Sequence record: MN895436.1
Strand: one strand, 5' to 3'
Source: Escherichia phage teqsoen
Length of the DNA: 64,000 nt
In this document: positions 53,944 through 54,775 of the stretch, piece by piece
How positions within the stretch are numbered: the stretch's first letter is position 1
Layout: every line of letters starts with the position of its first letter
Program-made: the position numbers and the translations under genes
Notes under the pieces: generated by a model
What the model was told of the DNA's origin: nothing
Databases searched by the model: none
Seen by the model: the letters and a program-made list of their open reading frames with translations, nothing else

Positions 53944-54019
53944 TGGTCGAGGCAGTAGGGATCGAACCTACGACCCAGGACTTAGAAGGTCCTTGCTCTT
54001 CCTTCTGAGCTATGCCTCG
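53944..54019 (-). tRNA. tRNA-Arg: tRNA-Arg (anticodon UCU)
   Basis: hand-folded cloverleaf, 76 nt, acceptor CGAGGCA/TGCCTCG, CCA encoded. Confidence 0.85.
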
Positions 54020-54023
54020 TATT

Positions 54024-54098
54024 TGGCGGACGTGATAGGATTCGAACCTATAACCAATCGCTTAACAGGCGATCGCTCTGCCATTGAGCTACACATCC
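54024..54098 (-). tRNA. tRNA-Asn: tRNA-Asn (anticodon GUU)
   Basis: hand-folded cloverleaf, 75 nt, anticodon loop CUGUUAA, T-loop TTCGAAT, CCA encoded. Confidence 0.75.
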
Positions 54099-54102
54099 AA
54101 AT

Positions 54103-54189
54103 TGGTGGGGAGTGGTGGAGTCGAACCACCCGAGTCGCAATGACAATGAATTTACAGTCCACACCGCTACCTCTACGGGATAACTCCCC
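54103..54189 (-). tRNA. tRNA-Tyr: tRNA-Tyr-like (anticodon GUA), class II
   Basis: 87 nt; perfect acceptor GGGGAGT/ACTCCCC, T-arm, variable-arm hairpin, loop CUGUAAA, CCA encoded; D-arm pairing imperfect. Confidence 0.6.
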
Positions 54190-54201
54190 TAATTCATAAT
54201 T

Positions 54202-54276
54202 TGGTGGCCCTGGGTGGAATTGAACCACCATCTGGCGATTATGAGTCGCTTGCTTGAACCTTCCAGCTACAGGGCC
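54202..54276 (-). tRNA. tRNA-Ile: tRNA-Ile (anticodon CAU, Ile by analogy with T4; could be Met)
   Basis: 75 nt cloverleaf, acceptor GGCCCTG/CAGGGCC, CCA encoded. Confidence 0.75.
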
Positions 54277-54277
54277 T

Positions 54278-54353
54278 TGGTGCTGATTGACGGAATCGAA
54301 CCGCCGACGTCCTCATTACAAGTGAGGTGCTCTACCTACTGAGCTAAATCAGC
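54278..54353 (-). tRNA. tRNA-Thr: tRNA-Thr (anticodon UGU)
   Basis: 76 nt cloverleaf, acceptor GCTGATT/AATCAGC, CCA encoded. Confidence 0.9.
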
Positions 54354-54359
54354 AAAAAC

Positions 54360-54449
54360 TGGCGGAGGCGATAGGATTTGAACCTATGAGTCGCCGGAGC
54401 GACTGCCGGTTTTCAAGACCGGTGCATTAAACCACTCTGCCACGCCTCC
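54360..54449 (-). tRNA. tRNA-Ser: tRNA-Ser (anticodon UGA), class II
   Basis: 90 nt with long variable arm, acceptor GGAGGCG/CGCCTCC, CCA encoded. Confidence 0.9.
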
Positions 54450-54451
54450 AG

Positions 54452-54525
54452 TCTCCATACAAGGATTTGAACCTTGGACCTCCTGATCCCAAATCAGGCG
54501 CTCTACCAAACTGAGCTACACGGAG
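54452..54525 (-). tRNA. tRNA-Pro: tRNA-Pro (anticodon UGG)
   Basis: 74 nt cloverleaf, loop UUUGGGA; acceptor stem has two G-U pairs; CCA not encoded. Confidence 0.75.
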
Positions 54526-54535
54526 TAAATTAAAT

Positions 54536-54609
54536 TGGAGCGGATAATGAGAATCGAACTCACATCATCAGATTGGAAGTCTGAGGTAATACCATTATAC
54601 GATATCCGC
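54536..54609 (-). tRNA. tRNA-Gly: tRNA-Gly (anticodon UCC)
   Basis: 74 nt cloverleaf, acceptor GCGGATA/TATCCGC, CCA encoded. Confidence 0.85.
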
Positions 54610-54614
54610 AAATT

Positions 54615-54701
54615 TGGTGCGAGAAGTGGGACTCGAACCCACAAGGAAATCATTCCGCAGCATTTTAAGTGCTGTGCCTTTACCAATTTGACCATTCTCG
54701 C
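54615..54701 (-). tRNA. tRNA-Leu: tRNA-Leu (anticodon UAA), class II
   Basis: 87 nt with long variable arm, acceptor GCGAGAA/TTCTCGC, CCA encoded. Confidence 0.9.
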
Positions 54702-54702
54702 G

Positions 54703-54775
54703 CTGGGAATAAAGGACTCGAACCTTTGCATCCTGGAATCAAAATCCAGTGCCTTACCAACTTGGCTAATTCCCA
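54703..54775 (-). tRNA. tRNA-Gln: tRNA-Gln (anticodon UUG)
   Basis: 73 nt; D-arm GCCAAGUUGGUAAGGCA as in bacterial tRNA-Gln; CCA not encoded. Confidence 0.85.

Follow-up and report, generated by a model that had tools for sequence, protein, structure and literature searches.

The tRNA genes at 53944-54775 of the window (the whole 64-kb stretch of DNA from Escherichia phage teqsoen that was analysed) raise two questions: how this locus, with tRNA-Tyr(GUA) and tRNA-Asn(GUU) between Ile and Arg, relates to the tRNA region of T4, and whether its Tyr gene specifies a working tRNA. An earlier note on this DNA had described a cluster of ten tRNA genes, had taken it for the T4 Ile-Arg interval filled with two further genes, and had raised the worry that an imperfect D-arm could make the Tyr gene a pseudo-tRNA. 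Gene calls, identities, the sequence of the SegB site and the covariation of tRNA-Tyr were all obtained directly in the present analysis, and they indicate that the locus is very probably a T-even (Tequatrovirus) tRNA operon of the segB-less T2 type, comprising ten predicted functional tRNAs followed by rnaD, rnaC and a terminator.

Gene content of the cluster

According to ARAGORN, the minus strand carries ten tRNA genes at 53944-54775, Tyr and Asn included; this reproduces both the number and the outer coordinates given in the earlier note. Using the Rfam model RF00005 (gathering score 29 bits), nine of the ten were called at 59.3-74.1 bits with E-values of 1e-10 to 1e-14, and Tyr alone was missed. 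The earlier reading had been made to depend on tRNA predictors finding Tyr and Asn: this holds for Asn with both programs, whereas Tyr is called by ARAGORN and not by Rfam. The density of tRNA genes at this locus is far above chance. The features, from high to low coordinate, are:

54702..54775, minus strand: tRNA-Gln(UUG) (ARAGORN; Rfam 67.4 bits)
54615..54701, minus strand: tRNA-Leu(UAA), class II, CCA encoded (ARAGORN; Rfam 59.3 bits)
54536..54609, minus strand: tRNA-Gly(UCC), CCA encoded (ARAGORN; Rfam 65.8 bits)
54451..54525, minus strand: tRNA-Pro(UGG) (ARAGORN; Rfam 66.8 bits)
54360..54449, minus strand: tRNA-Ser(UGA), class II, CCA encoded (ARAGORN; Rfam 62.6 bits)
54278..54353, minus strand: tRNA-Thr(UGU), CCA encoded (ARAGORN; Rfam 73.5 bits)
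54202..54276, minus strand: CAU-anticodon tRNA, T2-type allele, CCA encoded (ARAGORN, as 'Met'; Rfam 59.9 bits)
54103..54189, minus strand: tRNA-Tyr(GUA), phage-type class II, A73 and CCA encoded (ARAGORN)
54024..54098, minus strand: tRNA-Asn(GUU), G73, CCA encoded (ARAGORN; Rfam 74.1 bits, the best tRNA match of the window)
54022..54048, minus strand: match to the preferred SegB recognition site, 27 bp, GGTTCGAATCCTATCACGTCCGCCAAA (fits the published T2L tRNA-Asn site)
53944..54019, minus strand: tRNA-Arg(UCU), T2-type allele, CCA encoded (ARAGORN; Rfam 65.8 bits)
53825..53942, minus strand: homologue of T4 rnaD (species 2 stable RNA), directly 3' of tRNA-Arg (alignment to annotated T4 rnaD)
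53680..53818, minus strand: homologue of T4 rnaC (species 1 stable RNA) (alignment to annotated T4 rnaC)
53606..53629, minus strand: intrinsic-terminator-like hairpin followed by a T-run (conserved in T4)

The short separation of the genes noted earlier is correct, although the computed spacers within the cluster span 0-12 nt and not 1-12 nt, and the only ORFs listed within the cluster are short frames overlapping tRNA genes. The claim that Gln and Pro alone lack an encoded CCA is borne out by both the sequence and the ARAGORN structures, with the remaining eight genes encoding it: tRNA-Gln ends in G73 and a single C, upon which Leu begins, and tRNA-Pro ends in A73-C-U, upon which Ser begins. 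Gln and Pro lack CCA in T4 as well; T4 additionally has no encoded CCA in Ser (where the 3' end is UAA) and Ile, whereas CCA is present in their counterparts in the window. Otherwise, Leu, Gly and Pro are identical to the T4 genes, Thr differs from T4 Thr by 1 nt, and the differences between the two Gln genes are confined to the anticodon stem-loop.

Downstream of the tRNAs, the rnaC homologue exhibits a tRNA-like T-arm, with the motif GGTTCGAATCC at 53702, and the hairpin at 53606..53629 probably marks where the tRNA/stable-RNA transcription unit ends. A promoter search returned six sigma-70-like sites, compared with 8.2 expected from shuffles. The ten tRNAs and the stable RNAs are presumably made as one polycistronic precursor, which host RNase P and 3' processing enzymes would presumably cut; CCA addition would then be needed by Gln and Pro only, and the mature tRNAs would supply codons and amino acids that are over-used by the AT-rich phage.

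The identity of the CAU-anticodon tRNA deserves separate mention, as it was called 'Met' by ARAGORN and 'Ile(CAU)' in the earlier note. Its best E. coli chromosomal matches (5423/5426 genomes) are, every one, annotated as tRNA-Ile, and pairwise comparison gives 60/76 shared positions for E. coli Ile2, 49/77 for metT and 47/77 for T4 Ile. The gene also has the acceptor GGCCCU...AGGGCC of E. coli Ile2 and, nucleotide for nucleotide, its 15-nt anticodon arm; Ikeuchi and co-workers are said to have placed the TilS determinants, in 2005, in the C4-G69/C5-G68 acceptor pairs together with the Ile2 anticodon arm. The gene is thus nearer to host Ile2 than to elongator tRNA-Met and carries the C4-G69/C5-G68 pairs. 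On the strength of the chromosomal matches and pairwise identities we rejected the 'Met' label in favour of the better supported 'Ile(CAU)': the gene most likely encodes a tRNA-Ile2 of the lysidine type, reading AUA.

A T2-type haplotype within the T-even phages

The window is Tequatrovirus DNA and matches 970 phage records, mostly from Escherichia/Shigella Tequatrovirus. The cluster occupies the same place as that of T4 (NC_000866), from the e.8/rnaC/rnaD side to the trna.2-4/ipI side. What had been said of T4 agrees with its annotation: the eight T4 tRNAs include neither Tyr nor Asn, and segB separates Ile from Arg; T4 also has no preferred SegB site. However, the view of the locus as T4 plus two inserted tRNAs did not survive comparison of the flanking genes, as the CAU gene (47/77) and the Arg gene (48/76) are non-T4 alleles, diverging from T4 Ile and Arg at 61-63% identity. 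The CAU, Asn and Arg genes are each 100% identical to those of T2, and the block Ile2(CAU)-Tyr-Asn-Arg shares 328/333 positions (98.5%) with T2; from these identities the block is assigned to a T2-type haplotype.

T2 itself (AP018813) resembles the window in having Met(CAU)-Tyr-Asn-Arg without segB, in the Gln-Leu-Gly-Pro-Ser head of the cluster and in an identical tRNA-Asn containing the preferred 27-bp SegB site. It differs in that a 133-aa ORF replaces tRNA-Thr and another, of 116 aa, follows Arg, whereas in the window Thr is present and ORFs are lacking both within and directly after the cluster; the Gln genes of the two also carry different anticodon stem-loop alleles. RB6 (KM606996) and Escherichia phage 121/2022-2B (OR958571) carry these ten genes in an unchanged, uninterrupted order and align over the full 832 bp in one piece, at 99.3% and 98.9% identity, with point substitutions only. 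Among 60 evenly sampled matching records, on which the frequency of the haplotype rests, approximately nine (RB6 and eight others) gave single-piece full-length matches with this gene order, and about as many relatives have His between Asn and Arg as an eleventh tRNA. There is nothing unusual in the arrangement, which was published in 2008 for T2L, RB1 and RB3 and appears in the annotation of many Tequatrovirus records in GenBank, so that the layout, already described for T2, is an ordinary one.

Tyr and Asn could be retained in this haplotype purely to meet amino-acid or codon demand, with no counter-defence role. Measured against an E. coli codon table, Tyr and Asn rank second and third among the amino acids that the phage ORFs over-use (1.56x and 1.38x over-represented in the window ORFs), the codons TAT and AAT are over-represented 2.1x and 2.3x, and the codons read by the remaining eight tRNAs, A-ending or rare, are 1.5-3.9x commoner in the phage than in E. 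coli, all of which favours such an explanation. Against it stand the observations that T4, which has a similar composition, thrives without Tyr and Asn, that the tRNA-Tyr of T6 and of T5 has been tied experimentally to escape from PtuAB systems (PMC13096335, PMC11555353), and that T2, with Tyr, is resistant to Septu whilst T4, without it, is sensitive (PMC13096335). Demand alone is therefore a possible explanation but, in our view, a rather unlikely one, and supplying demand and acting in counter-defence are not mutually exclusive.

The SegB site and the absence of segB

SegB cleavage and homing, like the expression and anti-Septu activity of tRNA-Tyr considered below, are taken from published papers. 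The preferred 27-bp cleavage site of T4 SegB has been mapped to tRNA-Asn (Brok-Volchanskaya et al. 2008, PMC2330249); T2L, RB1 and RB3 lack segB, and SegB homing excludes the Met/Tyr/Asn/Arg region of T2L (PMC2330249). The site motif, GGTTCRANTCC...CCAR with G6, A16, G18, A26 and A27, was reconstructed from the text of that paper, and the 27-mer at 54022..54048 differs from the Ser site of the window at exactly these five published positions. T2, slur04, 121/2022-2B and NWU11B all share this exact 27-mer; the T4 and T6 loci lack it. A tblastn search with T4 SegB and the homologue of a relative revealed no SegB homologue anywhere in the 64-kb window (best E = 2.2); a copy elsewhere in the window was accordingly dismissed, and the earlier observation that the cluster has no homing-endonuclease ORF is upheld by both this search and the ORF list.

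Judged by these features, the locus appears to be an un-invaded, segB-less 'recipient' allele, which would account for the lack of a homing endonuclease. Should segB instead have stood between the tRNA genes and been deleted later, the allele would not be naive. The region is clearly in flux in close relatives: a SegB homologue with 51% identity to T4 SegB sits between His and Arg in OR062527, that of T6 sits after Tyr, and amplified segB units collapse without selection (PMC13096335). Yet in the window the preferred SegB target is intact, the Asn-Arg spacer measures only 4 nt and holds no endonuclease remnant, the block closely matches that of segB-less T2, and tblastn returned no fragment of SegB; we consider a secondary loss of segB improbable. 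For the un-invaded allele, cleavage and homing by SegB may be expected to proceed in teqsoen by analogy with T2L: a segB+ phage infecting the same cell would cut the Ile2-Tyr-Asn-Arg block at tRNA-Asn and replace it.

Structure and proposed role of tRNA-Tyr

The tRNA-Tyr gene has no RF00005 match at gathering; within the clan it scores best as tRNA-Sec, with 30.9 bits where 47 are required, and Rfam clan competition reports the best family only. The ARAGORN drawing moreover exhibits a C-C mismatch in the D-stem. Inspection of the gene reveals a connector of 4 nt (U8 A9 plus 2 nt) ahead of a CCGU/GCGG D-stem. Across 24 distinct homologues, collected with a search pattern that fixes the anticodon loop and T-loop, D-stem pairing reaches 100% in the +2 register, compared with 58% in the canonical register, in which one pair is never formed; the ARAGORN register was hence rejected. 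With the shifted D-stem 98.8% of cells are paired and 15/24 pairs show changes on both sides, pairing and compensatory values that none of 500 shuffles matched. Every helix is supported by covariation, the shifted D-stem including a compensatory change, and RNAalifold predicts the same structure unprompted, shifted register included. The imperfect D-arm is therefore a register artefact, which arises when the canonical 2-nt connector is forced on this tRNA: once displaced by 2 nt, the stem is conserved and shows no mismatch. The 4-nt connector and shifted D-stem would also explain why covariance models under-score the gene and some pipelines call it 'pseudo'.

Bacterial tRNA-Tyr is identified by a GUA anticodon, the A73 discriminator, G1-C72 and a long variable arm. 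All four features are present, and the molecule is accordingly predicted from its sequence to be a TyrRS substrate. That the gene is a decayed pseudo-tRNA, leaving a cluster of nine working tRNAs, is highly improbable: the Rfam miss, the C-C mismatch, a lone-sequence MFE that is not a cloverleaf (stability ordinary, z = -1.1) and the labels 'tRNA-Pseudo-GTA' or 'tRNA-OTHER' that some GenBank submitters give to distant homologues are outweighed by the covariation, by the intact identity features, by retention of the gene in 1268 phage records, by plasmid homologues that NCBI annotation names tRNA-Tyr and by 100% identity with the tRNA-Tyr of T6, which a 2026 paper detected by northern blot and found to rescue infection from Septu (PMC13096335).

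The same tRNA-Tyr lineage is common, at 78-97% identity, to T4-like, rV5-like, T5-like, FelixO1-like and Klebsiella T4-like phages, and also occurs on E. coli plasmids of ~110 kb, whilst no close copy was found on E. coli chromosomes. Compared with the gene of the T5-like phage Bf23, that of the window is ~84% identical, with the variable arm and T-arm identical. These observations would fit a mobile, phage-specific lineage with a conserved non-canonical architecture, namely a 4-nt connector (invariant U8 A9 and two variable nt) and a D-stem shifted by 2 nt, although we offer this as a tentative proposal that is more doubtful than not. A literature search, with older T5 tRNA sequencing papers outside its scope, returned no relevant earlier description of extra connector nucleotides in phage tRNA-Tyr.

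As to function, the gene of the window specifies the same molecule as the T6 tRNA-Tyr used in the rescue experiments. The T5-type tRNA-Tyr protects phage against retron-Eco7 to an extent that depends on its dosage (PMC11555353), and the T6 tRNA-Tyr is relatively unstable and itself cleaved by Septu (PMC13096335), which explains why protection against Septu depends on dosage. Mechanistically, the phage gene would raise the supply of tRNA-Tyr and so counteract PtuAB nucleases (Septu, retron-Eco7) that cut the tRNA-Tyr variable arm; from the identity of the two molecules we infer that both expression and anti-Septu activity extend to teqsoen. In T6, SegB drives tandem amplification of tRNA-Tyr/segB, whereas the window has no adjacent segB, so that amplification of this type would be unavailable in cis. 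For tRNA-Asn, no defence-related role is documented in the literature.

Tyr, Asn and His tRNAs all belong to the GUN-anticodon (queuosine) family, which is targeted by colicin E5-type nucleases. Such targeting was considered as a speculative idea, and no evidence for it was found.

For a genome scan, this locus is mostly a negative result: textbook T-even biology in its T2-type form, with no new arrangement. The re-registered D-arm of tRNA-Tyr is nonetheless useful for annotation, given that databases sometimes label the gene pseudo or OTHER. Were the proposed lineage and its architecture real, and the connector insertion functionally selected, this would constitute an undescribed structural signature of counter-defence tRNAs, and the insertion might, for instance, change how tRNA-targeting nucleases or modification enzymes recognise the molecule whilst charging by TyrRS is kept. 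For the phage itself, co-infection with T4-like segB+ phages should lead to its losing out in SegB-mediated marker exclusion. Conversely, PtuAB systems (Septu, retron-Eco7) that deplete tRNA-Tyr may harm it less than they harm T4, a possible protection that is of relevance to the choice of therapeutic T4-like phages.

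Gene content and probable transcription unit of the cluster

Over the whole window, ARAGORN called tRNA genes only within 53944-54775: exactly ten, each on the minus strand, in the 5' to 3' order Gln(UUG), Leu(UAA), Gly(UCC), Pro(UGG), Ser(UGA), Thr(UGU), a tRNA with a CAU anticodon, Tyr(GUA), Asn(GUU) and Arg(UCU), separated by spacers of 0–12 nt. The Rfam tRNA covariance model called nine of the ten at 59–74 bits (gathering score 29 bits), with the top score for Asn (74.1 bits); Tyr was the sole gene without a call, its best clan match at a permissive threshold being tRNA-Sec (30.9 bits, threshold 47). 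Of the two genes that the earlier note regarded as additional, Asn was thus recovered by both predictors and Tyr by ARAGORN only. CCA is encoded by eight genes: in Gln, G73 is followed by one C and then the start of Leu, and in Pro, A73 is followed by C, U and the start of Ser. ORFs within the cluster were limited to short frames overlapping the tRNA genes, and no sequence resembling SegB, the T4 homing endonuclease, was found anywhere in the 64-kb window. Every detail of the original observation, including the missing CCA of Gln and Pro and the lack of an endonuclease ORF, was therefore borne out.

Features of the tRNA region in the window
53944-54775, minus strand: ten-tRNA cluster
~53825-53942, minus strand: rnaD homologue (T4 species 2 stable RNA), no gap after the tRNA cluster (T4 alignment)
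~53680-53818, minus strand: rnaC homologue (T4 species 1 stable RNA; T4 alignment)
53629-53606, minus strand: 10-bp GC-rich hairpin with T-run, after rnaC
53078-53551, minus strand: 157-aa ORF (phrog_2280), no Pfam match, absent from T4

The CAU tRNA (54202-54276, minus strand) was labelled Met by ARAGORN on the basis of its anticodon alone. Chromosomal genes annotated as tRNA-Ile are its best matches in 5423 out of 5426 E. coli genomes. Compared with E. coli tRNA-Ile2, 60/76 positions agree, among them the complete acceptor stem and all of the 15-nt anticodon arm, versus 49/77 for elongator tRNA-Met. Given these matches, Ile(CAU), as first proposed, is the better label, and Met was set aside.

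The rnaD and rnaC homologues (53680-53942) are 97–98% identical to T4, where the tRNA region forms a single transcription unit that is processed into tRNAs; a similar unit of tRNAs, rnaD, rnaC and terminal hairpin would fit the arrangement in the window, for which a promoter scan was uninformative. Within the rnaC homologue lies a tRNA-like T-arm that carries the SegB core motif GGTTCGAATCC (53702). The ~36-bp terminator hairpin of this unit is present twice (53038-53073 and 53597-53632), once on each side of the 157-aa ORF, which hence looks like an insertion/deletion cassette.

A T2-like allele of the segB locus

The homologous region of T4 (NC_000866) contains eight tRNAs, as the earlier note had stated; segB, a homing endonuclease gene of the GIY-YIG family, separates Ile from Arg, and rnaD and rnaC come after the tRNAs. 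The window had been read as this interval with two further tRNA genes in it. Alignment of each gene with its T4 counterpart shows otherwise: Leu, Gly and Pro match T4 at every position, Thr has a single difference and Ser departs only at its 3' end (CCA versus UAA), whilst the flanking CAU tRNA and Arg match T4 Ile and Arg at only 47/77 and 48/76 positions. Insertion of two tRNAs into a T4 arrangement is ruled out by these non-T4 flanking alleles. The four-gene CAU-Tyr-Asn-Arg block is identical to T2 (AP018813) at 328/333 positions, with the CAU tRNA, Asn and Arg each identical to the T2 gene. Judged from these alignments, the difference from T4 is one of allelic cassettes, Ile2-Tyr-Asn-Arg versus Ile-segB-Arg.

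Such segB-less regions have been described: in T2L, RB1 and RB3, tRNA-Met(CAU), Tyr, Asn and Arg are present, and upon co-infection of T4 with T2L, segB inheritance is nearly 100% with loss of the ~1250-bp four-tRNA region of T2L (Brok-Volchanskaya et al. 2008, PMC2330249). The preferred 27-bp SegB site, which that work mapped to tRNA-Asn, begins GGTTCRANTCC and ends CCAR, and differs from a weaker tRNA-Ser site at G6, A16, G18, A26 and A27 (PMC2330249). In the window, the Asn 3' end plus two bases reads GGTTCGAATCCTATCACGTCCGCCAAA (54048 to 54022, minus strand) and differs from the corresponding Ser 27-mer, GGTTCAAATCCTATCGCCTCCGCCAGT, at exactly these five positions. The Asn 27-mer also occurs in T2, slur04, 121/2022-2B and NWU11B, and was not found in the tRNA regions of the segB-containing phages T4 and T6. 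The combination of segB absence and an intact site match indicates that the window holds an allele not invaded by segB, the recipient in a known homing system; by analogy, we infer that SegB would cleave this site and exclude the block in this phage.

Several further differences were observed. Ser (54360-54449, minus strand) and the CAU tRNA encode CCA, where T4 has UAA after Ser and UAU after Ile, which would leave 2/10 window tRNAs dependent on host CCA addition versus 4/8 in T4. The Gln gene (54702-54775, minus strand) carries nine substitutions relative to T4/T6, all within an anticodon stem-loop whose stem is fully compensated (CUGGA/UCCAG versus UAGCA/UGCUA) and whose loop has the E. coli glnU sequence UUUUGAU, versus CUUUGAC in T4. 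The existence of two Gln alleles among close relatives suggests selection specifically on the anticodon arm.

Amongst 970 phage records matching the region, overwhelmingly Escherichia and Shigella Tequatrovirus, 427 covered at least 80% of the 2-kb query, and the annotated gene order of Escherichia phage 121/2022-2B (OR958571) is identical to that of the window. Of 60 records sampled at even spacing from the 795 that match the 832-bp cluster, nine, including classical phage RB6 (KM606996), gave full-length, single-piece matches of the same length, with the same ten genes and no insertion. Eleven carried ~190 extra bp, which in slur04 and others hold a tRNA-His gene, the eleventh of the cluster, between Asn and Arg; in some relatives, His and Arg are separated by a SegB homologue (206 aa, E = 9e-69, 51% identity to T4 SegB). 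In T6, segB directly follows Tyr, and T2 reads Gln-Leu-Gly-Pro-Ser, 133-aa ORF, Met(CAU)-Tyr-Asn-Arg, 116-aa ORF. Close relatives are set apart from the window by discrete cassettes, and these varied arrangements reveal a well-sampled mosaic of which the window version is one common state.

Cassettes of relatives that are missing from the window (loci from other phage records, own coordinates)
L001 2402-2752: 116-aa ORF (phrog_3355), between rnaD and Arg
L001 2851-2926: tRNA-His, between Asn and Arg
L003 2590-3210: SegB homologue, between His and Arg
L005 1006-1407: 133-aa ORF, in T2 in place of tRNA-Thr

The tRNA-Tyr gene and its D-stem

In the ARAGORN drawing, Tyr has a 4-bp D-stem with a C-C mismatch and a G-U pair, and the earlier note had allowed that this imperfect arm might mark a pseudo-tRNA. 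The 87-nt gene is 100% identical to T6 tRNA-Tyr, which has been seen by northern blot and, when overexpressed, protects T6 against PtuAB of Septu Ec-B88, a nuclease that cuts tRNA-Tyr in its variable arm; T2, with a tRNA-Tyr gene, was resistant to this system and T4, without it, was sensitive (Chihara et al. 2026, PMC13096335). Homologues occur in 1268 phage records, and an alignment of 24 distinct sequences, including IMG/VR viral contigs, revealed compensatory substitutions in the acceptor, anticodon, variable and T helices: both sides change in 15/24 pairs, with the observed values reached by 0/500 shuffles. Invariance of the anticodon loop and T-loop is uninformative, since both were fixed by the search pattern. 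With the canonical 2-nt connector, just 58% of D-stem cells were paired, and one of the pairs formed in none of the sequences; shifting the register by 2 nt (connector U8-A9-N-N, stem CCGU/GCGG) gave pairing in 100% of cells, which rules out the ARAGORN register. In two sequences both sides of one pair of the shifted stem change, from C-G to U-A. The shifted stem was also returned by RNAalifold unaided, and leaves a D-loop A-G-A-G-G-U-A with the usual A14, R15, G18-G19 and A21. G1-C72, A73, the GUA anticodon and a long variable arm are also present. On this comparative evidence Tyr is a genuine tRNA, the question being settled by T6 identity, covariation and register. The low covariance-model score, and the labels "tRNA-Pseudo-GTA" or "tRNA-OTHER" occasionally given to distant homologues, plausibly result from the two extra connector nucleotides.

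This lineage (54103-54189, minus strand) is shared by unrelated phage groups and had no match on an E. coli chromosome. Its members are identical to the window Tyr at 96.6% in rV5-like phages (Vequintavirus), 92% on ~110-kb E. coli plasmids, 84–85% in T5-like (Bf23, 84%) and FelixO1-like (Felixounavirus, 85%) phages and 78% in Klebsiella T4-like phages; across 273 E. coli plasmid places identity is 80–92%, and the gene often adjoins tRNA-Asn. The rV5-like phages share a ~430-bp multi-tRNA block at 88–89% identity, suggesting that tRNA blocks are exchanged horizontally. Some 18–21 "Campylobacter phage" records also match the tRNA region (88–97% identity); they resemble rV5-like or T4-like coliphage and may be mislabelled or contaminant. 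A literature search, with older T5 work outside its reach, returned no description of the extra two connector nucleotides conserved in this lineage or of its shifted D-stem; we give a modest probability to this reading being both new and functionally meaningful.

Significance of the cluster

Arrangement, segB absence, Asn target and Tyr function have each been published or annotated before, and the cluster is a described T-even haplotype. In the literature covered, the sole item without a description was the Tyr connector insertion with its shifted D-stem, to which the spread of the lineage is related. With regard to why these tRNAs are carried, codon usage in 90 long window ORFs (35% G+C) was compared with an E. 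coli reference table. Codons of the eight "T4-type" tRNAs were 1.5–3.9 times commoner than in E. coli (AGA 3.9, TCA 2.4, ACA 2.3, ATA 2.2, GGA 2.2, TTA 1.8, CAA 1.5, CCA 1.5), with Tyr (1.56x) and Asn (1.38x) ranking second and third among over-used amino acids. Supply matching is thus a sufficient rationale for all ten tRNAs. Direct published evidence exists for counter-defence by tRNA-Tyr, through dosage, against the PtuAB nucleases of Septu and retron-Eco7 (PMC13096335, PMC11555353), and in T6 the Tyr gene undergoes SegB-driven amplification (PMC13096335). Lacking an adjacent segB, the window phage has no such amplification available in cis; by analogy, its tRNA-Tyr may, besides supply matching, counter PtuAB nucleases via dosage.
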